Part shown: in pieces, positions 50,451-62,467 of the stretch
Layout of the letters: each line of letters begins with the position of its first letter
Position numbering within the stretch: the first letter of the stretch is position 1
NCBI GenBank assembly: GCA_044869265.1
Contig: JBIOXD010000050.1
Span: 42,369 to 106,368 of the forward strand
DNA: 64,000 nt
Source of the DNA: Gemmatimonadales bacterium
Lineage (GTDB): Bacteria; Gemmatimonadota; Gemmatimonadetes; Gemmatimonadales; GWC2-71-9
Direction: 5' to 3'
Made by a program: the position numbers and the translations under genes
Notes under the pieces: generated by a model
Told to the model about the DNA's origin: nothing
Databases searched by the model: none
What the model saw: only the letters and a program-made list of their open reading frames with translations

Positions 50451-50530
50451 GGACAGAAGTCCTTTCTTGGGAAGGGGTTATGCTAAGGCGGCGTGACTTG
50501 GGCTGTCAAGATGGAGGCTCGAATTGTAAT

Positions 50531-50881
50531 ATGCCGCCAATGCGCAAACGCCGGTTGATGGTGCGTGGCCCGCTTCTCCTGCTGGCGCTGCTGCAGCTCG
50601 GCGTGCCTTCAGCGGCAGCTTGGGCGGACGCTCGCGCGGGCGCAGAACAAGCGGGACCGGCACACGTCGAATCGCTTTCCGCGAGCGGATGCGCCCGCAT
50701 CCACCCGCCCGACTGTGCCTTCCACCGCTTCCTCACCGCACCACGCGCACTGTCGCGCACGGTTGCCTTCGGAGTACGGCTTGCCCTCCGTGTCCGGTGG
50801 ACGCCGAGTGCGCCCGCGGCTGCGCCATCATGGTTCAAGCTTAGTCTCCCGGATTCCCGCGCCCCTCCCTCGCCCGCCTGA
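50531..50881 (+). CDS. Small secreted Cys/His-motif protein (paralog of 57677..58018)
   Basis: ORF 50480..50881. MPPMRKRRLMVRGPLLLLALLQLGVPSAAAWA signal. Motif VE-x6-C-x3-H-x3-C-A-x-H-x-F-L-T and a C-terminal SRAPP tail. Lies directly upstream of a TonB-dependent receptor. Confidence 0.45.
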   Translation: MPPMRKRRLMVRGPLLLLALLQLGVPSAAAWADARAGAEQAGPAHVESLSASGCARIHPPDCAFHRFLTAPRALSRTVAFGVRLALRVRWTPSAPAAAPSWFKLSLPDSRAPPSPA

Positions 50882-50984
50882 GTGACGGCGCCGCGACCCG
50901 CGGCGACCCAATCCCAAATGATCTGACTGGCGCCACGCGCTCTCAAGCAGCGTGGGCGCCTGGGACTATCACCAGGAGAGTGCC

Positions 50985-53210
50985 ATGTACGCTCTTGTAT
51001 TGATCGCGGCATTGGTGGGCCCAAGCACTGGAGTTGTGTCCGGGCGTGTGACCACGCCTGCCGGTGCGCCCATCGCCGAGGTCCAGGTGACCGTGCCCGA
51101 GCTGCGTCGATCAACGACGACAGACAGCACAGGTCGTTACACCATCACCGATGTTCCGGCCGGTTCGTTCACCCTCACGTTCCAACGCATCGGCTACGCA
51201 CCGGCTGTGCGGCGCTTTACTACCTCGGGCGGTGATGTGACGGCTGACGTCACGATGAGGGAGTCGGTCGTCGAGTTGACGGGCATTCAGGTGACCGCCA
51301 GCGCCAACGCCACGAGCGCGCTCAACTCGCCGCAACCCACCAGCATCGTGGCTGGTGACGACCTCCGCCGGGCTCAGTCCCCAACCCTGGGCGAAACGTT
51401 GCAAGGCGTCGCCGGCGTGCACAGCTGGAGCACGGGTGTCGGTATCGGCAAGCCGGTCATTCGTGGTCTCACCTCGAATCGCGTGCTCGTGCTCGATGAC
51501 GGGCAGCGGCTGGAAACGGCTCAGTGGGGCGACGAGCACAGTCCGAACGTCGAGACGGCAACCGCTGAGCGGATCGAGGTCATTCGTGGGCCGGCGAGTG
51601 TGCTCTATGGGTCCGATGCCTTGGGCGGAGTGGTGAATGTCGTTCAGAAGGATCTGCCGGATGCAGCGGGAAGTCGCGGCTTCGTACGTGGGTCCGTGAG
51701 TGCCGCTTATGGTTCGGCGAACGCGATGAAAGATGGATCCCTCGATCTCGAAGGCGCGAGCGGTAAGTTGGGTTTCCGTGGCGCCTTCAGCGGCCGCAGC
51801 AGCACCAACGTTCGTACGCCCTATTACACGTTGTGGAACAGCGGCAACGAGGCTGTCGCGGGCAGTGGGACCGTCGGCACACGCAGTTCCTGGGGATCAG
51901 TCTCGGCGTCGTTCTCCCAACGCAACGAGAAAGTCGAGCTGACCGACGAGGAGCCAGCGGCCACGCCGCTGCAGCGCATTGAGACGAGCCACGGCCGGAC
52001 GGATCTGACCCTACCGGTCGGCAGCGCCCGACTGGAGGTCTCGGCGGGCTACGCACGCAATCGGCGCCGCGAATTCGAGGACAAAGCAGATCCCACGGTT
52101 GCGCTCGGCCTGCTGACGCAGACCTACCTCGCGGACGTGCATTACCATCACGCGCCGGTCGGTGCGTTCTCCGGGTTGATCGGCTTCTCAGGTGTCCGCA
52201 ACGTGTTCGATAAGTTTGGCGCGGAAACGCTCATCCCTCCGAGCACCGCGAACAACGCCGCCGTGTACGCATTCGAGCAGACCGAAGGTCGGCGCGTCAA
52301 CGTCTCGATCGGCGCGCGCTATGACTACCGGCAACTGTCGGTGGACGCGGACACGGTTCTGGGAGTGGCGACGCAGGACAAGAATTGGAGCTCGGTGACC
52401 GGCAACCTCGGTCTGCTGCTGCACTTGAGCGAGCCGGCGGCGCTGGTGCTGAATATCGGGCGTGGATACCGCGCCCCATCGTCGTTCGATCTCTACACAA
52501 ACGGCGTGCATGAAGGCACCACAGCGTTCGAGCGCGGTAACCCCAACCTCACGACGGAAAAATCCCTCAATACGGACCTCGCGCTGCGGGCGCAAACCGC
52601 GCGGCTGTCGTTTGAGGTGGGGACGTTCCTCAACCTGATTCAGGATTACATCTATACGGTGCCGAGCGGCACCATCGATAGCGCGTCTGGTTTCGAGATC
52701 TTCGACGTGACGCAAGGCGACGCGCGCTTGACGGGGGTCGAGACCGCACTGCAATGGCACCCAATGGACTATCTGCACCTCCAGGGGACAGCAGACTATG
52801 TCCAAGGGCAGAACACCAGCACCGATGACCCGCTTCCGAACATGCCGCCCTTCCGGGCGACCTGGCTGGTCCGTCTGGAGGGCGGCCAACGGTCTCAGAG
52901 CACCTTGCAGAATCCCTACTTCTCCATTGGTGGCGAGGTGAATGCGCGCCAAACGCGCATGGATCCGGCCGAAGAGCAGTTCTACGCGGGTGCCCTTGGA
53001 GGATCGGGGTATCAATCTCGTGCCTATACGCTCGTGAATTTCGGCGCCGGTGTGGCGTGGGTCATCGGGTCACACACACTCCTGATGGATCTCTCGCTGC
53101 GCAATGCCTTCAACGAGCGCTACGCGGATTACATGAGTCGCATCAAGACCAACGCGCTCGATCCGGGGATGGGCCGTTCATTCCTCGTGCGGGTAACCGC
53201 CGAGTTTTAA
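50985..53210 (+). CDS. TonB-dependent receptor with carboxypeptidase-regulatory N-domain (metal uptake inferred from context)
   Basis: ATG at 50985 after AGGAGAG. GVVSGRVTTPAGAPIAEVQVTV (CarboxypepD_reg), plug (GKPVIRGL...VLVLDDGQRLE...IEVIRGPASVLYGSDALGGVVNVV), barrel ending FLVRVTAEF. Confidence 0.85.
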   Translation: MYALVLIAALVGPSTGVVSGRVTTPAGAPIAEVQVTVPELRRSTTTDSTGRYTITDVPAGSFTLTFQRIGYAPAVRRFTTSGGDVTADVTMRESVVELTGIQVTASANATSALNSPQPTSIVAGDDLRRAQSPTLGETLQGVAGVHSWSTGVGIGKPVIRGLTSNRVLVLDDGQRLETAQWGDEHSPNVETATAERIEVIRGPASVLYGSDALGGVVNVVQKDLPDAAGSRGFVRGSVSAAYGSANAMKDGSLDLEGASGKLGFRGAFSGRSSTNVRTPYYTLWNSGNEAVAGSGTVGTRSSWGSVSASFSQRNEKVELTDEEPAATPLQRIETSHGRTDLTLPVGSARLEVSAGYARNRRREFEDKADPTVALGLLTQTYLADVHYHHAPVGAFSGLIGFSGVRNVFDKFGAETLIPPSTANNAAVYAFEQTEGRRVNVSIGARYDYRQLSVDADTVLGVATQDKNWSSVTGNLGLLLHLSEPAALVLNIGRGYRAPSSFDLYTNGVHEGTTAFERGNPNLTTEKSLNTDLALRAQTARLSFEVGTFLNLIQDYIYTVPSGTIDSASGFEIFDVTQGDARLTGVETALQWHPMDYLHLQGTADYVQGQNTSTDDPLPNMPPFRATWLVRLEGGQRSQSTLQNPYFSIGGEVNARQTRMDPAEEQFYAGALGGSGYQSRAYTLVNFGAGVAWVIGSHTLLMDLSLRNAFNERYADYMSRIKTNALDPGMGRSFLVRVTAEF

Positions 53211-53213
53211 CAT

Positions 53214-53837
53214 CTAGCGCGGCGGGGGTGCGATCGTCGGCGGAGTGTGATACAGGACCTGCACCGTCTGACGATCGCGCCCACTTGGCACCGTCACCTG
53301 CACCGTGGAGTACATAACGTCTTCCGGAGCGGGACTTTCCTGCAACAATCCCAGTGTGTGACCCAACTCGTGGACCGTGACGCGCTTCACACAAGCAGCG
53401 ACTTGCTCCGGGGTATAGCCTTGGGCCGTGGTGATGCGGATCTGCATACGGATCGGTTCGGCGAGCGACGTGCCCGCGCTATCGAACAGCAACGTCGTGA
53501 CGCCGTCGCAGGCGAATACCGCTGCGCCTGAATCGGGAGGGACATCCGGCGGCACGCTGTCGTACCAGGTGACGATGACGTCCGCGACATTTGAATCGGA
53601 TACCAGCTCTCCCGTGAACTCACCATACAGCAGTTGTGTCTCCCAAATGCCTATTCCCTTCGTCACGAGGTCGCGCATGTGACCGCGTGAGTCCGCGTAG
53701 TAGCGCACCGGTAGCCGGTTTCGCGGCCAGCGGAACACATCGCCGGCATTGTCGAAACCATACCACGCGGTTCGGTCCGGTATGGTTGCTTCAGTGCACG
53801 CGACCATGAGCACGGCTCCCATGAGTGCGCGTCTCAT
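53214..53837 (-). CDS. Putative zinc-metalloprotease-like lipoprotein (HELGHTLGL)
   Basis: Signal MGAVLMVAC. Metzincin-like VTVHELGHTLGLLQ motif. ATGA overlap with the upstream gene. Confidence 0.55.
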   Translation of the reverse strand: MRRALMGAVLMVACTEATIPDRTAWYGFDNAGDVFRWPRNRLPVRYYADSRGHMRDLVTKGIGIWETQLLYGEFTGELVSDSNVADVIVTWYDSVPPDVPPDSGAAVFACDGVTTLLFDSAGTSLAEPIRMQIRITTAQGYTPEQVAACVKRVTVHELGHTLGLLQESPAPEDVMYSTVQVTVPSGRDRQTVQVLYHTPPTIAPPPR

Positions 53838-54484
53838 GGCGCGCTTCGTCCCTTGCCGAGAATCCGCGCTCCAAACCCCAGCGTCACGCGATGTACCAGC
53901 TGCGCGGATGTGAAGCCGTCGGCATGCAGCGCGGGAGTCGAAAACCGATGCAAGTCATAGCGCAGCGACACCCCGAAGTCGTGGGCGGGCCCTCCCAGCT
54001 TGGTCGGGGACCAGTAGAGACCGGCCGTGCCGACGGCCCAGAGCCCGGAGCCGCCTCGAAACAATCCGGTTTCATCAGCGGGCAGATACTTGATGCCACC
54101 GATCCCCACGCGCGCCGCCAGACTGGGACTGACTTCACGACGCGCCCCGACCGTGAAGGCGATCACCGTCACAGAGTTGAATTTCGCCGCCTCACCGCTC
54201 TCGTGGCGCTGTAATGCCGCCCACGACACGTCGAGAACGGCTTCGGGTGTCCAGGGGCCGTTCGTGCGCTCGCCGATGCTCAGCGCGAGCACCGGCCCGA
54301 TAGCGGGCTTCGCATCGACGGGCTCGACGATCACGTCGTGCACGAGAGCCGTCGTATAGCGAGCGCCGACGGTTGCGTGAACGGAAGCCTGGGCGGCCGG
54401 ACGGCCCGACGGCCAGACGGCCAGGGCGGTCAGCAGAATGAGCGTGTGTGCGGCCGTCCGGCCGTCCGACCGTTCGACCGTCAA
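53834..54484 (-). CDS. Small outer-membrane beta-barrel protein (OmpW/porin-like, family not resolved)
   Basis: TTG start overlapping the znuB-like stop (TTGA). Signal LILLTALAVWPSGRPAAQA. Alternating beta-strand pattern. Confidence 0.5.
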   Translation of the reverse strand: MTVERSDGRTAAHTLILLTALAVWPSGRPAAQASVHATVGARYTTALVHDVIVEPVDAKPAIGPVLALSIGERTNGPWTPEAVLDVSWAALQRHESGEAAKFNSVTVIAFTVGARREVSPSLAARVGIGGIKYLPADETGLFRGGSGLWAVGTAGLYWSPTKLGGPAHDFGVSLRYDLHRFSTPALHADGFTSAQLVHRVTLGFGARILGKGRSAP

Positions 54485-55311
54485 GGGATCACCGCCTTCT
54501 CACCCACGCCGAGTTTTCGCAAGACTCCCGCGCCGACGAGCACCAGGGCGTACATACAGACAATCAGCGGGCCGGTTGGAAAGTTGCCGACGTAGGAGAC
54601 GTAGAGGCCGAGCAGTGATGCCAGGGCACCGGTGCCCCATGAAATCAGCACCATCTTACGAATATCTCTGGTGAACAGGAATGCGACGACTGCCGGTACG
54701 ACCAGCATCGTAAAGACCAGCAGCACGCCCGCGACCGGGACCGAAATCGTGACAGCGACGCCGAAGGATAGGTAGAACAGAAAGTCCCAGGCACGGATGC
54801 GCCAGCCTGCGCGCTCAGCCTCCTCGGGACGGAACGAGATCATCAGGAACTGCTTGCGCAAGGCAAAATGGAGCAGTCCCAGCGCCGCATAGGCTGCCCC
54901 TTTCTTGAGAATGGTGGGCCACGTGATCCAAATGATCGAGCCTTCCAGTACGTCGTGGAGTGCTTCGGCGCCGCGGGGCGCCTTGTCGGCGACGAGGATC
55001 GCCGCGGCCGAAGCCGCGACGTAGACGATGCCAATGATCGCCTCGTGTGGCACGCGGCCCTTGCCGCGCGTGCGGGTAATCGCGAACAACGCCGCGCCGA
55101 TGCAGGTGAACACGAGAGAAAAGATGAATGCCGTTTGCGAGTCGGGAGCGACATGGTAGAGCAGCGCCACGACGCTCCCCAATCCCGCCATCTGTGCCAG
55201 GGAGAGGTCCACGAAGATGACCTCGCGTGCGATCACATGCAGGCCGAGGTACGAGTGGATGGCGACCAGCACCATACACGCGACAAACGGCGCGAACATG
55301 AATTCCAACAC
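54481..55311 (-). CDS. znuB: Metal ABC transporter permease (ABC-3 family, ZnuB/TroC-like)
   Basis: MLEFMFAPFVACMVLVAIHSYLGLHVIAREVIFVDLSLAQMAGLG, typical ABC-3 N-terminus. About 8 TM segments. Confidence 0.85.
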   Translation of the reverse strand: MLEFMFAPFVACMVLVAIHSYLGLHVIAREVIFVDLSLAQMAGLGSVVALLYHVAPDSQTAFIFSLVFTCIGAALFAITRTRGKGRVPHEAIIGIVYVAASAAAILVADKAPRGAEALHDVLEGSIIWITWPTILKKGAAYAALGLLHFALRKQFLMISFRPEEAERAGWRIRAWDFLFYLSFGVAVTISVPVAGVLLVFTMLVVPAVVAFLFTRDIRKMVLISWGTGALASLLGLYVSYVGNFPTGPLIVCMYALVLVGAGVLRKLGVGEKAVIP

Positions 55312-55332
55312 CGTGGTGTCTCCTGCGTTGGT

Positions 55333-56376
55333 TTAGCGACCCGTGCTGGCCGTCTCTGTAAACGCCCGCGCGAGCGAGCCGACCAGATTGTCGATCAGTT
55401 CGAAGAACGTGTTCACGCCCGGCGCGCCTCCGGCCTGGGACGGTACGATGACCGCCTTCGCGCCGGTGCGCTCAGCGACCTGGCGAATCTGGTTGTGATC
55501 GAAATACCCGGGCGACAACAAGACTCGCACCTGCCGCTGGCGCATCAGCTCGATTACCTCGCGCACGTGCTTCGGCGTCGGCGGAATCCCCGGCTTGGGC
55601 TCGATGTAGTCGACGCATCGGATCCCGAACTCCCGCGAGAAGTAGTCCCACTCCTTGTGGTAGCAGGCCATCTCTTTGCTGCGATACACGAATCCCTGCT
55701 TGAGCCAGCCTCCCAGGCGATCAAACAGGGGGCTGCCTCTATAGCGCCGCTGATTTAGAAAGTCGAACAACTTTCCTTGGCGGTCGAGATCGGCCAGTGT
55801 CTGCCCGCCCAGAATTGTGACGAGCTCCTCGCCGTACAACGCACGATAGATACGCTCCTCAAAATCCTTTTCGCGGGCTGTAAAGTATTCGGCGTTCTCG
55901 GGCGACACACGCTTCAAACCGGTGAGAATGTTCCGAGCGATTTGGACGCCGTTGAGCGGCTCCGTCCAGATATGTGGATTGCCGTACACGTGGATGTCAC
56001 CCTGTGTTCGGGAGTAACTCGCGGGCACATCGAGGAGCGGGATCCCAGTGTATGCGGCAACGTAGCCCGGACCACCTTCCGTGACTCGCGGATTGCCGGC
56101 TTTATCGAGCAGGGCAGGGACCCACAGCTCGAGATCGAGACCGGTGGTAACGAAAACGTCGGCTTCCGCGAGTAATGGCACGAAGCTGGGCTTCGGCTGT
56201 ACGTAGTGCGGGTTCTCGTCGCCCCTGGCAATCGAGTTGACCGTGCCGCGCTCTCCGACGATCTCACGGGCGATAGCGGCATAGGTCGTCAGCGAGGTGA
56301 CGACTCTTACTGGAGCTGCGCGCGGCGGCGTTCCACCGCCGGACAGCCCAAGGAGAAACGGAATGATGTATAGCAT
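55333..56376 (-). CDS. znuA: Metal ABC transporter substrate-binding protein (TroA/ZnuA cluster)
   Basis: VVTSLTTYAAIAREIVG...ENPHYVQPKPS...ADVFVTTGLDLELW...GNPHIW. The ATG at 56376 overlaps the upstream stop (TGATG). Confidence 0.85.
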   Translation of the reverse strand: MLYIIPFLLGLSGGGTPPRAAPVRVVTSLTTYAAIAREIVGERGTVNSIARGDENPHYVQPKPSFVPLLAEADVFVTTGLDLELWVPALLDKAGNPRVTEGGPGYVAAYTGIPLLDVPASYSRTQGDIHVYGNPHIWTEPLNGVQIARNILTGLKRVSPENAEYFTAREKDFEERIYRALYGEELVTILGGQTLADLDRQGKLFDFLNQRRYRGSPLFDRLGGWLKQGFVYRSKEMACYHKEWDYFSREFGIRCVDYIEPKPGIPPTPKHVREVIELMRQRQVRVLLSPGYFDHNQIRQVAERTGAKAVIVPSQAGGAPGVNTFFELIDNLVGSLARAFTETASTGR

Positions 56377-57620
56377 CAGTAGGTCTCGTGTTTGTGTGGA
56401 CCGATGGCCCAGACTGCCTGGAGCAGCAGCCGATCGCGACCGGCGCCTGTCGGGGTGAGCCGTCGAGTGTATTCCGCGCGCAGGAACACCCACTCGCTCT
56501 GCCACCAAGTGAGGGTGGGAACAATCTGGCGGGTGATGTCATTCGGCCCTTCAGGGGCCTCGACGTAGTCGTAACGCGCGCCGAGGATCCAGCTCTGCCC
56601 TAAGCGGTACGTCGTACCGACGTAGGCACCGAGGCGGGTGTCACCGGTGCCCGCACGCTCCTTCTTGAGCCCGTAGAGCTCCGCGCGAACTGTCCAGTCG
56701 CGGTAGAGCGCGCGGTCGGGCGGCCGCCACGTGAATCGGAAATCGACTCCGCCCATGGTCGTCTTGAGTGCAGTATCGGGATTGGTTCCGTAGATCCCCG
56801 TCGCCCCAATCTGCATGTAGGTCGACCTGCTCAACTGCCAGAAATTGTTCAAATGCAACAGGTAGGAGGGGCGGTTTCCGCCCTCGAACAGAGCGTCATT
56901 GGAGCCGGCGGTCACCTGAGCGTACAGCTCGTGCGTTCCGAGGCCGCCGAACGCGCGGTACAGCGCTGCGCCTGCCCCCGCCAACCCTTCCTCGCCCAGA
57001 AAGGTCGTCAAGACCAGCGGATACTCCGTCTCCGGAACCGCATGCAGATGCCAGCGATTGAGTTCCCCCAATTGCTGGCGGAAGACGCCGAGATCGAGCC
57101 TGAGCCGGGCCGGGAGGCCGGTATAGTAGAAGTAGCCCTCTTCGATTTCGATCCCGCCTTCATGTACCCCAGCGAAGATCTTGGTGTGTGAGTAGGGGTC
57201 GAGCGCAGCCTGAAACGAAAACTCGACTTCATGCAGCTCGAAGTTGTCGCGCTGCTCTCCGTCGGTTTGAATGGCGGCGTGGAGATCGCCTGTCACGCTG
57301 ATCTCCGGATTGAGCTGCGACTGGCTTCGTTCCCGCCCCACAAACCGCTGGCCGGCGGTATCGACCGCCGCCGTCGTGTCCCGGCCGATGACGCCGGCCG
57401 CTGCCGCGCGTAGAGCGGCGATGTCTTCGTCCTGTGCCCGAGTGCTATCCGGACGTGCGCCTGCACGTGCCAGTGCCGCACGAAGCGAATCCAACCGAGC
57501 GCGGAGCGCACGCAGCTCAGCGTCGAGCGAGTCGAGCTGTCGCTGCGAGGGTTGCTGCGCGTCCAGACGCAACGTCAAGCACGCGGCTGCAAGGAGCAGC
57601 ATGCAAAGAGTGCGTGTCAT
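56376..57620 (-). CDS. Porin-like outer-membrane beta-barrel with N-terminal coiled coil
   Basis: Signal MTRTLCMLLLAAACLTLRLDA. Coiled coil QLDSLDAELRALRARLDSLRAAL. Beta-rich remainder ending ...PHKHETY. Family not recognised. Confidence 0.55.
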   Translation of the reverse strand: MTRTLCMLLLAAACLTLRLDAQQPSQRQLDSLDAELRALRARLDSLRAALARAGARPDSTRAQDEDIAALRAAAAGVIGRDTTAAVDTAGQRFVGRERSQSQLNPEISVTGDLHAAIQTDGEQRDNFELHEVEFSFQAALDPYSHTKIFAGVHEGGIEIEEGYFYYTGLPARLRLDLGVFRQQLGELNRWHLHAVPETEYPLVLTTFLGEEGLAGAGAALYRAFGGLGTHELYAQVTAGSNDALFEGGNRPSYLLHLNNFWQLSRSTYMQIGATGIYGTNPDTALKTTMGGVDFRFTWRPPDRALYRDWTVRAELYGLKKERAGTGDTRLGAYVGTTYRLGQSWILGARYDYVEAPEGPNDITRQIVPTLTWWQSEWVFLRAEYTRRLTPTGAGRDRLLLQAVWAIGPHKHETY

Positions 57621-57676
57621 AATCAGTGTCCTCTCCTGTTGAGACCGAGGAGCGTCGAAGGTCAACTACAACGACG

Positions 57677-58018
57677 TCAGGAAAGGGCGAGGGGTGGGGC
57701 TCGGGGGGCTCGGGCGGGTGTCAGCCGGACGATGGGTGGGACCGATACAACCGGTTGCGGATGCGTGAGGTGCCCGCCGGCAACGGGCGTTTCGATAATG
57801 ACGACGTGCTGGGGAACCACCCGCGTGGTCATGTAGTTGCACAGCGCGCAGCGCAGCTCGTCATGGAGGACCGGACAGCGCCCAGTGTGATTCGCTTCAA
57901 CACCGGCTTGCGCCACCACCACGTCGCGCGCGTGCGCGAGCGTGACGGCACCGCCGCCAAGCACCTGAAGAGCCAGGAGGATCGCCAGCAGCACGCGCGT
58001 CAGCATGGTCTCCTTCAT
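57677..58018 (-). CDS. Small secreted Cys/His-motif protein (paralog of 50531..50881)
   Basis: Signal MLTRVLLAILLALQVLGGGAVTLAHA. Motif VE-x6-C-x3-H-x4-C-A-x-C-x-Y-M-T and a C-terminal ARAPRAPP tail. The ATG overlaps the nfo stop (ATGA). Confidence 0.45.
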   Translation of the reverse strand: MKETMLTRVLLAILLALQVLGGGAVTLAHARDVVVAQAGVEANHTGRCPVLHDELRCALCNYMTTRVVPQHVVIIETPVAGGHLTHPQPVVSVPPIVRLTPARAPRAPPLALS

Positions 58019-58881
58019 ACGCCAACCACTGCGCGGCTGTTGCCACGGGCGTAGGCGCGCAGCCGCCGCAACATGCGGCGGTCGTGCCGCAGCGGGTCAT
58101 CCCGCTTGGGCGTCTCGATAATCTTAACAACATCCTGCAGCGCGGCGTCCCGCATGATGCGCCGAAAGGGTTCCGGCCCGATCCTGCCGTCGCCAATCCA
58201 TTCATGGCGATCGACGCGCGATCCGGCAGCCGCGCGCGAGTCGTTGAGATGCAAGCACTTAAGTAGATCGAACCCGATCACACGATCGAATTCTTCCCAG
58301 ATCGCCTCCACACGCGTGAGATCGTACCCCACAGCGTGCAAGTGCGCCGTGTCGAGGCAAAACCCGACCCGCGTCCGAATCTCGTCAGGCAACGCGTTGC
58401 GGAGATCGCGGAGCTGCTCGAACGTCGCACCGAGCGCGGTCCCCGATCCGGCCGTGCCTTCAATCCACACCTGCAGATCGCCGGGCATGGAGGCCAAACA
58501 CACGGCGTATGCGCCGGCGTTGCGCTCCAATCCGGCATCCCGATCGTCCATGTAGTTGCCGGGATGCGATACCACGGCGCGCAACCCGAGCGCGCGCGAT
58601 CGCTCCAGCTCGTTCTTGAAGCTCCGCATGCTGCGCGCGCGCAGCACGGGATCGGGTGACGCCAGATTGATCAAGTAGCTATCGTGTGCGATAACCGCTT
58701 CGAGGCGATGACGGGTCACCTCGGTGCGGAAGCGCTCGACCATGGTCGTCTCGAGCGCCGGCTCGCGCCACTGATTGGGCGTCTTGGTAAACAGCTGGAT
58801 GGCGGTCGCGCGCAGCGCCCGGCCGCGCTGGGGTGCGGTCGCCACACCGCCTTGACTCGACACGTGCGCACCGAGGATCAC
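58015..58881 (-). CDS. nfo: Deoxyribonuclease IV (endonuclease IV)
   Basis: ILGAHVSSQGG, AIQLFTKTPNQW, HDSYLINLAS, VSHPGN, CLDTAHL, LHLNDS motifs. The GTG at 58881 overlaps the pcm stop (GTGA). The remainder of the 472-aa ORF is a frame artefact. Confidence 0.9.
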   Translation of the reverse strand: MILGAHVSSQGGVATAPQRGRALRATAIQLFTKTPNQWREPALETTMVERFRTEVTRHRLEAVIAHDSYLINLASPDPVLRARSMRSFKNELERSRALGLRAVVSHPGNYMDDRDAGLERNAGAYAVCLASMPGDLQVWIEGTAGSGTALGATFEQLRDLRNALPDEIRTRVGFCLDTAHLHAVGYDLTRVEAIWEEFDRVIGFDLLKCLHLNDSRAAAGSRVDRHEWIGDGRIGPEPFRRIMRDAALQDVVKIIETPKRDDPLRHDRRMLRRLRAYARGNSRAVVGV

Positions 58882-59561
58882 AACTCTTCCGTAAACGCCA
58901 GACGGGAGATCAGGGGAACGAACCGCACACCGCCCGCGCGGCGGTGTTTGATGGGGCCGCCGTTCATCGGCCGCTCCAGAACCACCAACTCTTGTGATGC
59001 TAGGTTGCCCACCGGGATCACCAGACGCCCTCCAGGGGCTAGTTGACCCAGGAGGGGCTCGGGAATGCGCGGCGCGGCGGCCGCGACGATGATGCCGTCG
59101 AAGGGCGCTGCGTCGGGCCATCCCGGCGCGCCGTCGCCGAGCTGCGTTTCGATATTGTCGAGACCGAGCCTGCGAAACCGCTCTTCCGCTTCGACGAGCA
59201 AATCGGGAAGCCGTTCGATCGTGAAGATCCTGCCGGCAGATACGAGCCGTGCCAGCACGGCCGTCTGATATCCCGAGCCTGTGCCGATTTCGAGAATGCG
59301 ATCCGCGCGTCGCGGTTGCAGCTCCTGGATCATGAGCGCGACGACGAAGGGCTGTGAAATTGTTTGCCCGCTGCCAATGGGCAGCGGCGCGTCGTTGTAG
59401 GCGTCGGCGGCGAGATGCGGCGGCAGAAACCACTCACGCGGCACCCAGCGCATCGCCGCAAGCAGCCGTTCATTGCGAATGCCGCGGCTGGCGAGCTGGC
59501 GCACGACCATGCGCGTGCGTGCGGCGAGTGTGTCCGCGGCTGGATGTGCTTGCCCGGGCAT
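58878..59561 (-). CDS. pcm: Protein-L-isoaspartate O-methyltransferase
   Basis: AMRWVPREWF, GQTISQPFVVALM, ILEIGTGSGYQTAVLA, DGIIVAAAAP. Start set to MPGQAHP (59561). Confidence 0.9.
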   Translation of the reverse strand: MPGQAHPAADTLAARTRMVVRQLASRGIRNERLLAAMRWVPREWFLPPHLAADAYNDAPLPIGSGQTISQPFVVALMIQELQPRRADRILEIGTGSGYQTAVLARLVSAGRIFTIERLPDLLVEAEERFRRLGLDNIETQLGDGAPGWPDAAPFDGIIVAAAAPRIPEPLLGQLAPGGRLVIPVGNLASQELVVLERPMNGGPIKHRRAGGVRFVPLISRLAFTEEL

Positions 59562-59580
59562 GGGATGAACTATAGCCGCG

Positions 59581-59728
59581 TGCGCCGTGCGCCGTGAGCC
59601 GTACGCCGTTGCCATTCCGGCGCACTGCGCACGGCTCACACCGCACGTTTTAGGGCGGCGCACTGCGGACGGCGCACGGCGCGCGTTTTAGTCCGGCGCA
59701 CTGCGCACGGCTCACGGCGCACGTTTAG
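59581..59728. repeat. ~37-bp tandem repeat x3 (built from GCGCAC-type heptads, each ending CGTTTTAG) preceded by one inverted partial copy
   Basis: Units at 59617-59653, 59654-59691 and 59692-59728 (ccggcgcactgcgcacggctcacaccgcacgttttag and variants). An inverted copy gcgtgcgccgtgcgccgtgagccgtacgcc lies at about 59579-59608. Confidence 0.9.
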
Positions 59729-60834
59729 TCAAGCGTCTTCTGGAATCGCCGCACCGAAAGCGCAATCAGAAGCAGCGCGAAGGCCAGCAGGATTGCCATT
59801 TCCCGCCACAGCTCGGGCACGCCGACTCCTTTCAGCAGGATGCCGCGCAGCACCTTGAGGAAATGCGTCAGCGGCAGGAACGCCCCGATCCATTGGAACA
59901 GCGCGGGCATCGCCTGCCGGGGAAACATGAAGCCCGAGAGCAGAATGTTGGGGAGTACGAAAAAGAAGCTTGCCTGCATCGCCTGCTGCTGGGTACGCAC
60001 GAGCGTCGAAATGAACAGGCCCATCGCCAGGCTGGCCACGATGAACAGGAGCGCGATCCCGTAGAACAACAACACGTTGCCGGTGAGCGGCACGTCGAAC
60101 ACAAACCGGCCGAGCAGCAGCACGGTGGTCATTTGGACGAGGCCGACGCCCACGTAGGGCGCGATCTTGCCGAGCATGAGCTCGGTTTTCGTGATCGGTG
60201 TGACGATGAGCTGCTCGAGCGTGCCCCGCTCGCGCTCGCGCACGATCGCCATCGCGGTCACCAGCACCATGGTCATCGTGAGGATGACGCCCACGAGGCC
60301 CGGCACGATGTAATTGGGGCTACGTAAACCGGGGTTGTAGCGCGGTCGCACCCGCGCTTCCAGCGGAAGCGCGGTGCGATGCGCCGCGGCAGACAGAATC
60401 GCGAGGTTGCGCATCTGCGCGACGCCCGCCGCGGCCGCAAGTGCGGCCTGGGACGACAGGGGATCGGACGCATCGACGATGACCTGGACCAGCGCGGTCG
60501 TGCCGCGGGCCAGGTCGCGCGGGAAGTCATACGGGATCGCGATTCCCGCCTGGGCGTCGCCCTTGGCGATCCATTCGTCCAGCGCCTCGCGGCTATCGAC
60601 GTGCGCCACGATGCGAAAGTTGCCCGTGTTCTCGAAGTCAGCGATCAGGTCCCGGCTCGTCGGCGTGCGCGATTCATCGAAGACGACGGTGGGGATGTGG
60701 CGCACGTCCGTCTGGATTGCGAACCCGAACAGCAGCAGCTGGATGACGGGGACGCCAACCATAATTCCCAACGTGAGGCGGTCCCGGCGCATCTGAATGA
60801 ATTCCTTGCGGAACATCGGGATGAAGAGCTTCAC
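59725..60834 (-). CDS. ABC-2 type exporter permease
   Basis: FRKEFIQMRRDRLTLGIMVGVPVIQLLLFGFAI, a large extracytoplasmic loop, then 5 C-terminal TM segments. The GTG at 60834 overlaps the ATPase stop (GTGA). Confidence 0.85.
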   Translation of the reverse strand: MKLFIPMFRKEFIQMRRDRLTLGIMVGVPVIQLLLFGFAIQTDVRHIPTVVFDESRTPTSRDLIADFENTGNFRIVAHVDSREALDEWIAKGDAQAGIAIPYDFPRDLARGTTALVQVIVDASDPLSSQAALAAAAGVAQMRNLAILSAAAHRTALPLEARVRPRYNPGLRSPNYIVPGLVGVILTMTMVLVTAMAIVRERERGTLEQLIVTPITKTELMLGKIAPYVGVGLVQMTTVLLLGRFVFDVPLTGNVLLFYGIALLFIVASLAMGLFISTLVRTQQQAMQASFFFVLPNILLSGFMFPRQAMPALFQWIGAFLPLTHFLKVLRGILLKGVGVPELWREMAILLAFALLLIALSVRRFQKTLD

Positions 60835-61577
60835 AGGCCCTGCTCCTGCTCGTCCCGCTGCTGCAGGATGATGAACGCGTCTTCGAGGTCTGCGCCGCCC
60901 ACCTGCCTGGCGACCTCGTCTGGTGTCCCCAGGGCGATGAGATGGCCGTGGCTGAGGAGCGCGAGTCGGCCGCACCGTCCCGCCTCATCCATGTAGTGCG
61001 TCGTGACGATGACGGTCGTGCCACGCTCCCCCAACTGTTTGATCGTCTGCCAGAACCCCCGTCGCGCAGCCGGGTCCACGCCAGCGGTGGGCTCATCGAG
61101 AAACAACACGCGAGGTTGGTGCATCAGGGCGCACGCAAGACCGAGCCGCTGTTTCCAGCCGCCCGACAACGTTCCGGCGAGCTGGTTGAGCCGCCGGTCC
61201 AGCCCCAAGAACGCGACGACTTCGGCAATGCGGCCGCGGCGACTGGGTCCCTCCAGCCCGTAGATCCCGCCGTAGAAATCCATGTTCTCGGCGACCGTCA
61301 GATCCTCGTACAAGCCGAACCGCTGCGACATGTAGCCGATCAGCTCTTTGATCTTGTCGGGTGATTCGCGCACGTCGACGCCCGCGACGATGGCCGTTCC
61401 TTCGGTTGGAGCGATCAACCCACACAGCATCCGGATCGTGGTGGTCTTGCCCGAACCATTCGGACCGAGCAACCCAAAGACTTCACCCGTGGCAATGGTG
61501 AGGTTGAGATCGCGCACCGCGACGATCGGGCCGAAGTGCCGGGTGAGGTGGCGCGTTTCGACAGCGACGGCGCTCAC
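60831..61577 (-). CDS. ABC transporter ATP-binding protein (ABC-2 exporter partner)
   Basis: GLLGPNGSGKTTT, LSGGWKQRL, LLFLDEPTAGVD. Confidence 0.92.
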   Translation of the reverse strand: MSAVAVETRHLTRHFGPIVAVRDLNLTIATGEVFGLLGPNGSGKTTTIRMLCGLIAPTEGTAIVAGVDVRESPDKIKELIGYMSQRFGLYEDLTVAENMDFYGGIYGLEGPSRRGRIAEVVAFLGLDRRLNQLAGTLSGGWKQRLGLACALMHQPRVLFLDEPTAGVDPAARRGFWQTIKQLGERGTTVIVTTHYMDEAGRCGRLALLSHGHLIALGTPDEVARQVGGADLEDAFIILQQRDEQEQGL

Positions 61578-62467
61578 GGCAACAACGGTATCTCGACCCG
61601 CACCGGCAGACCGGCCTTCAGGCGTCCTTCATTGTCATCAATCGCGACCTTGATTCCAAAGACGAGATCCGCCCGCTCGCGCTCGGTTAGGGCCGCCCGA
61701 GGCGTGAATTCGGCGCGGGGCGCGATCTCCGTCACGTGTCCGCTGAACGCCTGCGAATAGCCATCGACCTGGATCTTCACAGCCAAACCGACCTTGAGCC
61801 GCGCCACGAACCGTTCCCCGACGTAGGCGCGGATCCAGGGCGCGCGCACCAGGCCGATCGAAACGACCGGTACGCCGACGGCGATCATCTCCCCCCGCTC
61901 GGCGAAACGCGTCAGGACGATCCCGTCCGCCGGCGCGATCAAGACCAATTGATCGCGGATCGCCTCGGTAACCTGGACGGCCGCACGGGCCGCCTGCGAT
62001 TCGCGGACCGCGGCCCGGACCGATTGAAGCCGCGCGGCGGCCGCCGACGCGGAAGTCTGCGCGCGGTCCAGATCCTGAGGGGAATTAATGCCCTGCGCCC
62101 GCAGCACGCGGGCGCGCGCGAGATCGTTGGCGGCGCGTTCACTGTCGGCTACAGCGGCACGGATCTCTGCGGTGCGGGCCGACGCCGCTTCCGCGAGGGC
62201 GCGGCGTTGTTCGATCATCGCCTCGAGCCCCGGCTGTTCGAGCACCGCCACGGTATCACCGGCGCGCACCGAGTCGCCCTCATCCTTGAGCAGGCGCTCC
62301 AAACGCCCCGACGCCAGCGGGCTGAGGCGGACTTCGCGGATTTCGACCGTGCCGGCAACGGTGAGGGTGTTGCCCGAGCTACCGCATGCCGCCAGGAGCG
62401 CCGCGGTCGCGAGCGCTACCGTGGCGTCGAGGGCCGAGTGGCGCGGGGACGCGGTGCGCGTAGCCAA
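61574..62467 (-). CDS. HlyD-family membrane fusion (periplasmic adaptor) lipoprotein
   Basis: Lipobox LLAAC. Barrel-sandwich and coiled-coil pattern (VAGTVEIREVRLSP..., LIAPADGIV). TTG start at 62467. Confidence 0.8.
   Translation of the reverse strand: MATRTASPRHSALDATVALATAALLAACGSSGNTLTVAGTVEIREVRLSPLASGRLERLLKDEGDSVRAGDTVAVLEQPGLEAMIEQRRALAEAASARTAEIRAAVADSERAANDLARARVLRAQGINSPQDLDRAQTSASAAAARLQSVRAAVRESQAARAAVQVTEAIRDQLVLIAPADGIVLTRFAERGEMIAVGVPVVSIGLVRAPWIRAYVGERFVARLKVGLAVKIQVDGYSQAFSGHVTEIAPRAEFTPRAALTERERADLVFGIKVAIDDNEGRLKAGLPVRVEIPLLP

Follow-up and report, generated by a model that had tools for sequence, protein, structure and literature searches.

Within a 64,000-nucleotide stretch of DNA from a Gemmatimonadales bacterium (GenBank assembly GCA_044869265.1, contig JBIOXD010000050.1, positions 42,369 to 106,368 of the forward strand; hereafter the window), we analysed a group of eight genes at positions 50,531 to 58,018. 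This region is probably a conserved Gemmatimonadales metal-uptake locus, most likely for zinc, in which two translation units are each gated by a leader peptide of the DUF2946 type. The two small open reading frames (ORFs) at its edges, here called small1 and small2, look from their sequences like two arrest-peptide switches that sense metal, a kind described only recently; the mechanism set out below is computational throughout. The first of them would gate a TonB-dependent receptor (TBDR) of the ZnuD/haem type, and the second a porin-like outer-membrane protein (OMP), a substrate-binding protein (SBP) of the ZnuA type with three His ligands, an ABC-3 permease, a small barrel and a matrixin-like lipoprotein. 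The components are of known kinds, with DUF2946-type leaders that, in a phylum new to them, apparently control a Znu-type importer without a linked ATPase together with dedicated OMPs. The original prediction, made from the sequence of the window, had described a metal-acquisition island bracketed by two paralogous small secreted Cys/His proteins and devoid of an ATP-binding cassette (ABC) ATPase. The leaders and the regions that follow them are arranged as follows.

small1: 50531..50881, plus strand; putative leader (upstream ORF, uORF) of the TonB receptor, 116 residues.
Intergenic leader between small1 and the TBDR gene: 50882..50984, plus strand; two G+C-rich hairpins and the Shine-Dalgarno sequence (SD) of the TBDR gene.
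Switch region between small2 and the OMP gene: 57621..57686, minus strand; predicted anti-SD at 57686-57678, SD at 57638-57630, 56 intergenic nucleotides.
small2: 57677..58018, minus strand; putative leader of the OMP-SBP-permease-barrel-lipoprotein unit.

For comparison, one genome per species was scanned with the OMP, which has relatives in 241 stretches; the best 80 loci were taken with 10-kb flanks (1.12 Mb in total; labelled L001 and so on) and searched by tblastn with all window proteins. Homologues of both small ORFs were extracted from these related loci and aligned (25 for small1, 70 for small2). The supposed paralogy of the two small proteins is faint in BLASTP (E 0.011) and clear in a profile-profile comparison by hhalign (98% probability, E 7.6e-14). 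Their common architecture consists of a signal peptide, a Cys/His cluster, a linker of variable sequence, the motif RAPP, a short tail and the stop. The export signals were recognised by inspection as a charged N-terminus and a hydrophobic stretch, followed by AWA/D in small1 (...AAAWA/DA) and AHA/R in small2 (...TLAHA/RD). The cluster follows the pattern H-x-E-x-x-H-x3-4-C-x3-H-x3-4-C-x-x-C/H. In the window, small1 has C62-x-x-H65 (CAFH), RAPP at residues 110-113 (nucleotides 50858-50869) and the tail SPA, and small2 has C57-x-x-C60 (57850-57839), RAPP at residues 106-109 (57703-57692) and the tail LALS. H45, E47, C54, H58, D61, C62, R110, A111, P112 and P113 are invariant in the small1 family, as are C48, H52, R56, C57, C60, R106, P108 and P109 in the small2 family. 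All 70 members of the latter carry CxxC, and the small1 family is divided between CxxC (13/25) and CxxH (12/25).

The distance between CxxC/H and RAPP hardly varies: it is 44 residues in 25/25 small1 homologues and 42-45 in 70/70 small2 homologues, with 44 and 45 in the window. Of 96 family members, 95 have RAPP, RGPP or RSPP, followed by 3-5 residues up to the end, and one locus has RPPP. The arrest core is RAPP in every small1 homologue (25/25), with a tail of 3 residues; in the small2 family it is RAPP in 61, RGPP in 8 and RSPP in 1 of 70, with tails of 3-5 residues. Both ORFs evolve as coding sequence, as third-position substitutions dominate and synonymous single-nucleotide codon changes outnumber non-synonymous ones; small2 also has a coding-type G+C profile. 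It comprises 113 residues if read from ATG 58018, which overlaps the stop of nfo, or 109 residues from ATG 58006. The latter, with its own SD (AAGGAG), is more likely the true start, and the 109-residue form is already called in public assemblies as P0121.

A few observations concern the start of small1. A TGTAAT/TATAAT-like hexamer directly before its first ATG (window 50451-50545) is conserved across loci; the malic-enzyme gene, which is divergent, shares the promoter. Another ATG follows in frame 9 nucleotides downstream (MPPMRKR), and the arrangement is compatible with a leaderless transcript starting from this second ATG.

The link to DUF2946 (PF11162) runs through intermediates. The Pfam model is weakly matched by 8/22 close homologues (best E 0.017). 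A profile of the small-ORF family found 249 cluster representatives among 1.84 billion proteins; of 98 remote representatives that could be aligned, 27 match PF11162 at E <= 0.01 (best 1.4e-7), and the spacing of 42-45 residues is kept in 97 of the 98. By these sequence comparisons, small1 and small2 are a divergent branch joined to DUF2946. The original prediction took them to be secreted proteins with a metal-related function of their own; they are better read as cis-acting leader peptides of the DUF2946/CruR/CutF type.

The 3' ends of the leaders also speak for such a role. In the minimum-free-energy fold, the last codons of small2 together with the UG of its stop, CCUUUCCUG (57686-57678), pair with the SD of the OMP gene, CAGGAGAGG (57638-57630). 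This long-range stem recurs in relatives and encloses a loop with a conserved inner hairpin. We assessed the pairing as a duplex between the last 15 nucleotides of the uORF and the 28 nucleotides before the start codon. The mean for small2-OMP was -16.4 kcal/mol over 71 distinct junctions, versus -9.1 for shuffled SD regions; other gene junctions gave -7.9, -11.7 and -12.7 kcal/mol, and M23-pcm, represented by a single locus, -17.0. The mean for small1-TBDR was -16.7 kcal/mol (16 junctions), and the small1 tail CUCUCCUGA pairs with the SD region CAGGAGAG in 15 relatives. Cognate tail/SD pairs were more stable than permuted ones in 5000/5000 permutations for small2-OMP and in 4971/5000 for small1-TBDR. 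This advantage arises because alternative classes of tail and SD match each other: CCUCUCCUGA occurs with ACAGGAGAGG, CUCCCGUUCCUAG with GGAACGGGAG, and CCUGUCCUGA with GGACAGGAG. When 29 closely related leaders are aligned, 91.7% of the cells of the named structure are paired, versus 38-58% when the partner is slid, and four pairs of the inner hairpin show compensatory changes. Complementarity between tail and SD, with co-evolution, is thus present in both leader families. The spacers between leader and gene measure 50-110 nucleotides in most loci (50-75 for small2-OMP, about 100-110 for small1-TBDR). The two hairpins in the small1-TBDR spacer lie at about 50887-50908 and 50929-50960; of 200 shuffled sequences, one folds as stably as this spacer (z = -2.29).

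We propose that each leader would be translated and exported co-translationally through its signal peptide. Since 42-45 residues separate the Cys/His cluster from RAPP, the cluster would just have emerged on the periplasmic side when the ribosome reaches that motif. The 3-4 tail codons and the stop would form the anti-SD strand of a stem in which the ribosome-binding site of the following gene is masked; stalling at RAPP would place the ribosome over this strand and free the SD, so that the downstream genes would be on. With the first Pro codon in the P site, tail and stop would lie at roughly +6 to +20, largely inside the mRNA channel of the stalled ribosome, and arrest at RAPP would therefore unmask the SD. 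An anti-SD made from the leader's own 3' end would also explain the fixed length of the tail. Metal binding to the nascent chain would release the arrest; the leader would then terminate, the stem re-form and expression fall, an off state to which transcription termination may contribute. That metal releases the arrest and shuts off uptake is argued from physiology and from the precedent of CruR, likewise the regulator of an uptake receptor.

Several points weigh against this interpretation. Neither window ORF matches Pfam DUF2946 at E <= 0.1, and the characterised members of that family sense copper, not zinc. Unlike in the published cases, small2 stands directly after nfo and not at the head of an operon. 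The outer anti-SD/SD stem shows one-sided variation only, with no double-sided changes within the closely related class, as one strand is coding sequence and the other an SD, both of them constrained; RNAalifold returned no consensus structure for the gapped leader alignment. The case for co-evolution therefore rests on the permutation test and the comparison between classes. The window's own small1 is atypical: it has ESLS for ESHS, so that the conserved His49 is Leu, and the tail SPA* (CCCGCCUGA) replaces TLS* (CUCUCCUGA), by which the anti-SD is lost and the pairing falls to -9.1 kcal/mol, versus about -17 in relatives. With the anti-SD tail and one His gone, the switch may be weakened here, and this strain may control its receptor more loosely. 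Finally, the arrest itself, the response to metal and its direction, the identity of the metal and a trans-encoded ATPase (see below) are all inferred; the search for the ATPase covered the window and the related loci.

All eight ORFs of the original prediction were present in the ORF map where it had placed them, and the searches with hidden Markov models (Pfam, NCBIfam) that it had proposed assigned the TonB receptor, a ZnuA-family SBP, an ABC-3 permease and a matrixin-like protein; small1, small2, the 414-residue OMP (Pfam threshold E <= 0.1) and the 216-residue protein had no Pfam or NCBIfam family match. The genes downstream of the leaders are the following.

TonB-dependent receptor: 50985..53210, plus strand; likely start ATG 50985 with the SD AGGAGA at 50974-50979; the ORF opens at 50952.
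Matrixin-like lipoprotein: 53214..53837, minus strand; lipobox MVAC, HELGH and the Met-turn DVMY.
216-residue protein: 53834..54484, minus strand; signal peptide, presumed small outer-membrane barrel, TTG start.
ABC-3 permease of the ZnuB/PsaC type: 54481..55311, minus strand; PF00950.
ZnuA-family SBP (cluster A-I): 55333..56376, minus strand; PF01297, likely start ATG 56376.
414-residue OMP: 56376..57620, minus strand; signal peptide, N-terminal coiled coil, possibly a porin-like beta-barrel; likely start ATG 57620.

Overlaps had been described at four of the five junctions in the chain that runs from small2 to the lipoprotein gene; they do exist, at three of the five (OMP/SBP by 1 nucleotide, permease/barrel and barrel/lipoprotein by 4 each). 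The other two are gaps, of 56 nucleotides between small2 and the OMP gene and 21 between the SBP and permease genes. Upstream, the stop of nfo (the endonuclease IV gene) overlaps the small2 ATG at 58018 through ATGA. The stop of the receptor gene lies 3 nucleotides from that of the convergent lipoprotein gene, and no terminator was seen between these two genes by a sigma-70/terminator scan and inspection.

The assignment to metal acquisition of the TroA/Znu type agrees with the families of the SBP and the permease. The SBP belongs to PF01297 (144.7 bits). Its H57, H135 and H240 align to H76, H141 and E207 of YfeA, and the position of Asp282 is occupied by Pro; H57, H129, H135, C238, H240, C254 and H270 are invariant in 72 orthologues. 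This predicted ligand set is the His3 pattern of the zinc type, not the His2-Glu-Asp of the Mn/Fe type. The protein lacks the His/acidic-rich loop of Gram-negative ZnuA, has a single extra invariant His129 ahead of His135, and carries an insertion of about 60 residues. The receptor has Plug and TonB_dep_Rec_b-barrel domains and an N-terminal CarboxypepD_reg domain (Pfam), and its translation shows FRAP/NPNL-like boxes and a HYHH cluster. Its best NCBIfam model is ZnuD (NF038289), matched partially and at 181 bits, far below the cutoff of 950; the next-best models are haemoglobin/haem receptors, and the OprC-type copper receptor model scores 69 bits. No palindrome resembling a Zur/Fur operator was seen by eye upstream of small1, and a promoter scan found nothing above chance on the relevant strands, a search made without a Zur consensus for this phylum. 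We favour zinc as the metal probably imported, since the SBP is of the His3 type, the receptor is nearest to ZnuD and haem receptors, and the Cys/His cluster of the leaders would fit Zn(II) or Cu(I).

That the locus instead imports copper, like every characterised DUF2946 system, seems to us rather doubtful. CruR and CutF do sense copper through CxxC or CxxxC, and the neighbours of DUF2946 genes are mostly copper genes, TonB receptors included. However, the SBP is ZnuA-like with its three His and has no Met/Cys-rich copper motif (an invariant Cys238 does stand next to His240), the receptor scores 181 bits against ZnuD versus 69 against the OprC-type model, and the locus contains no copper chaperone, PCuAC, CopC or multicopper oxidase. 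Published surveys, moreover, accept non-copper DUF2946 subfamilies; the supplement of one of them lists RGPP/RAPP uORFs before 'zinc-regulated TonB-dependent' receptors, porins and 'carboxypeptidase-like regulatory domain' proteins. A more specific proposal is that both leaders sense zinc and not copper, the half-exported Cys/His cluster reading periplasmic Zn(II) and setting, at the ribosome itself, the translation of the Znu-type importer and of its outer-membrane partners. We consider this quite possible, though somewhat short of probable; a literature search found nothing relevant on zinc-responsive RAPP peptides. If true, it would be the first non-copper, importer-controlling RAPP/DUF2946 member, in a phylum with almost no genetics, and the small1 found internally in some relatives (see below) would be an in-operon gate downstream of housekeeping genes.

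The output of the switch could also be of the CruR type, where stalling shields the transcript from Rho and release leads to Rho-dependent intergenic termination, with sequestration of the SD secondary or absent. CruR controls an uptake TonB receptor in that way, and the small1-TBDR spacer of about 100-110 nucleotides, with its conserved G+C-rich hairpins (possible pause sites) and a C-rich unpaired stretch, would offer room for it. A purely transcriptional mechanism, however, leaves the complementarity and co-evolution of tail and SD unexplained, and the small2-OMP spacer is short (50-75 nucleotides). We therefore regard it as unlikely to be the principal output, while the two modes are not mutually exclusive.

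The setting of the locus is that of ordinary chromosomal DNA. The original prediction had called it an island; the G+C content is flat (0.61-0.66) and the same flanking genes occur in the relatives examined, with the order ftsEX-M23 ... pcm-nfo, the locus, and malic enzyme-phosphoenolpyruvate carboxykinase (PEPCK). The region is a core chromosomal locus of Gemmatimonadales. Gene-neighbourhood conservation, named in advance as a check, was found across the related Gemmatimonadales loci: the SBP and permease genes follow the OMP gene in 65/65 loci with room, small2 precedes the OMP gene in 66/70 loci by tblastn (family ORFs were recovered in 3 of the other 4), pcm-nfo lies upstream in 57-62 of 64 loci, and barrel and lipoprotein genes occur together in 15/29 loci that reach at least 9 kb downstream. 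Since the neighbourhood is kept and the SBP and permease are of the metal type, we see neither a chance juxtaposition nor a non-metal importer here. The receptor and small1 vary in position and orientation, with small1 always directly upstream of the receptor. Bracketing by the two paralogues is thus incidental: each just precedes the unit it would control, and small1 is internal and co-directional in 12/23 loci.

These 12 of the 23 small1 loci (L018, L020, L066, L078 etc.) are fully co-directional, in the order pcm-nfo-small2-OMP-SBP-permease-small1-TBDR-(HEFQH protein)-barrel-lipoprotein. There the permease stop is overlapped by the small1 start (GTGA), so that the leader would be an internal gate and not an operon head. 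In the window, small2 follows nfo and pcm (58015-59663) and promoter room exists only inside nfo, so transcription of these housekeeping repair genes may continue into the uptake unit. In the few relatives without nfo, small2 follows pcm or an ABC-2 permease gene instead. In the window and about half of the relatives, an inserted exporter of HlyD, ABC ATPase and ABC-2 permease (window 59725-62467) separates pcm from the M23 peptidase gene; the others, e.g., L001, L003 and L006, lack it. The locus is also a mosaic. L032 is closest in the flanks, barrel and lipoprotein (malic enzyme 96%, nfo 91%, barrel 82%, M10 79% identity), and the same locus diverges centrally (OMP 63%, SBP 69%, permease 65%). 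L001 and L006 have OMP at 81-84%, SBP at 83-84% and permease at 91-92%, yet the barrel at 48%; L003, L010 and L013 pair an OMP at 63-68% with an SBP at 84-87% and a permease at 92%. Such discordant identities suggest allelic exchange, in which the OMP and the SBP-permease pair would behave as exchangeable cassettes.

It is improbable that the small proteins are mature secreted or periplasmic metal binders (metallochaperones or metallophore-like) of a mobile metal-acquisition island. Their signal peptides, conserved Cys/His residues and purifying selection as proteins would fit such a role. However, the linker between CxxC and RAPP is constant in length (42-45) and not in sequence, which is the signature of a tunnel/translocon spacer and speaks against a folded domain; RAPP, an avoided and arrest-prone motif, is nevertheless invariant, with 3-4 codons between it and the stop; the SD downstream is paired by the tail codons; the characterised relatives, CruR and CutF, have no action outside cis and undergo degradation once exported; and neither composition nor synteny gives any sign of an island.

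The absence of a ZnuC-type ATPase, the other feature that had been pointed out, holds in the window and beyond it. A six-frame scan of the 64 kb for Walker-A and signature motifs found only UvrA and the ATPase of the neighbouring HlyD/ABC-2 exporter, and in 80 related species-level genomes the locus and its flanks of about 10 kb contain only FtsE and the ABC-2 exporter ATPase (60831-61577 in the window). Both were rejected as partners of the permease, since they are parts of other complete systems and their presence varies. Nothing relevant on znuC in Gemmatimonadetes was found in the literature. The permease itself (PF00950, 117.8 bits; all NCBIfam equivalog scores below cutoffs) gives full-length alignments with E. 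coli ZnuB and the solved PsaC, its closest solved relatives being PsaBC and ZnuBC. It is the most conserved protein of the locus, with up to 92% identity where the OMP has 63%, and its cytoplasmic coupling region, SFxPEEAERxGWxIRxWDFLFYLSFG, is conserved in 69 orthologues. Because that region is kept, the permease is likeliest a normal type-II ABC (ABC-3) membrane domain served by an unlinked, trans-encoded ATPase, and such a partner is more likely than a mechanistic novelty. Unlinked or shared ABC ATPases are common. That the permease and SBP work without any ATPase, e.g., as a facilitator or a channel fed by the SBP, is highly improbable. It would account for the lack of a linked ZnuC, as no ATPase candidate lies within about 10 kb in any of the 80 species, and the permease is the best-conserved protein of the locus; but the coupling-helix region that docks an ATPase is strongly conserved and the closest solved homologues are obligate ATPase partners. 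We know of no type-II ABC membrane domain that works alone.

The predicted set of three OMPs and a metzincin-like lipoprotein stands as regards the TonB receptor and the lipoprotein, which has a matrixin-like match; the 414- and 216-residue proteins are putative barrels. The 414-residue protein gives weak matches to DUF3138 (9/18 members) and Porin_O_P, and its AF2 model, built with 18 close homologues, is poor (predicted local distance difference test, pLDDT, 54) and shows helices and, after them, about 16 strands; when the PDB was searched with a profile of the protein, coiled-coil noise was all that came back. With low confidence, we read it from this model as a porin-like outer-membrane barrel. 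It has 1854 homologues, and the named ones are almost all from Gemmatimonadales. Two His motifs, NRWHxH (residues 189-193) and the C-terminal GPHKHETY (407-414), are invariant in 18 homologues and are possible metal-binding sites. The 216-residue protein, whose TTG start overlaps the permease stop (TTGA), is presumed from its sequence pattern to be a small outer-membrane barrel.

The lipoprotein scores 27 bits against PF00413, versus a cutoff of 24. It has 505 homologues; all names that bear an organism are from Gemmatimonadales/Gemmatimonadetes, and several read 'matrixin family metalloprotease'. H156, E157, G159, H160, G163 and M175 are invariant, giving HExGHxxG and the Met-turn; the position of the third zinc ligand is shifted by one residue, with Q-E in the window and His in most orthologues. 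Its AF2 model (pLDDT 69.7, predicted template-modelling score 0.71) has as best PDB folds the catalytic domains of MMP-8, MMP-1, MMP-13 and karilysin, with template-modelling scores of 0.4-0.5. One may speculate that it degrades exported leaders or matures other components. A different lipoprotein of 555-561 residues, with HEFQH...EEGWLDEG and a weak Peptidase_MA_2 match, lies directly downstream of the receptor gene in L013 (14402-16069, minus strand) and L018 (15969-17654, plus strand) and is absent from the window.

Metal-sensing arrest peptides (CruR and CutF) were described in 2022-2025, for copper in Proteobacteria only; with the present locus, the leader mechanism would also operate in Gemmatimonadota, on a Znu-type ABC importer that has its own porin. 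The published DUF2946 surveys consulted here do not mention Gemmatimonadota, ZnuA or ABC-3 neighbours. Our comparative set comprises about 100 leader/SD pairs with co-varying tails and indicates how a tail of 3-4 codons after RAPP could itself be the anti-SD strand. The locus also provides a concrete example, open to testing, of an ABC-3/ZnuA pair that is conserved and yet never has its ATPase beside it. For annotation, 'hypothetical' Cys/His ORFs of about 110 residues beside metal transporters would be better interpreted as regulatory leaders than as cargo.

Of the known systems, CruR (Bp2923) of Bordetella pertussis has CxxC 45 residues before a RAPP that lies three residues from the C-terminus, and its RAPP-dependent arrest, relieved by copper, controls the downstream TonB-dependent transporter BfrG (PMC9426467). 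Likewise, small1 is a small exported ORF of a family in which CxxC or CxxH is followed, about 45 residues later, by RAPP near the end, on the same strand and directly upstream of a TonB-dependent receptor gene; the spacer of about 100 nucleotides is of the same order as the 162 nucleotides in B. pertussis. The window proteins differ from CruR in falling below the Pfam DUF2946 threshold, in their extra conserved His/Glu ligands and in the CxxH of half of the small1 family. CruR acts via Rho-dependent termination; in the present locus, the SD of the following gene is paired with the uORF tail. Further differences are the phylum (Gemmatimonadota), the likely metal (zinc and not copper) and a leader that can be internal to a long gene array.

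In CutF of Rhodobacter capsulatus, the Cys motif is 45 residues from the stalling motif; with the latter at the peptidyl-transferase centre, the Cys motif sits in the periplasmic SecY vestibule. The SD of cutO is masked by a stem-loop, and the proposal is that stalling opens it (bioRxiv 10.1101/2022.11.11.516240, 10.1101/2025.02.05.636593). The shared features are a Sec-exported leader, a Cys motif 45 residues before a C-terminal Pro-rich motif, a short intergenic stem that shields the SD, and action in cis. CutF, however, has CxxxC and a different Pro-rich tail, versus CxxC/RAPP here, and in our locus the anti-SD strand is formed by the leader's own last codons and stop. CutF switches on the detoxifying multicopper oxidase CutO at high copper; since the cargo here is an importer, the opposite response would be expected.

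The cargo resembles ZnuABC, AztABCD and TroABCD together with ZnuD in its ZnuA-fold SBP with three His, its ABC-3 permease and a receptor that best matches ZnuD. It differs from these importers in lacking a linked ATPase and the His-rich loop of the SBP, which has the insertion of about 60 residues instead, in the co-transcribed coiled-coil porin, small barrel and one or two zincin-like lipoproteins, and in its apparent control by leader peptides, with no Zur box recognised.

Finally, like SecM, ApdA and ApdP, the leaders are small exported proteins that have a RAPP/RGPP core close to their C-terminus and would regulate the gene that follows (PMC10951233, PMC12992588). RAPP is an avoided, arrest-prone motif (PMC12992588); RAPP and RGPP are the two most potent arrest cores, and CruR stalls with two Pro codons in the P and A sites (PMC12992588, PMC10951233). 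Unlike those peptides, which monitor the secretion machinery, small1 and small2 carry a conserved Cys/His cluster at a fixed distance from the core, which implies that their input is metal.

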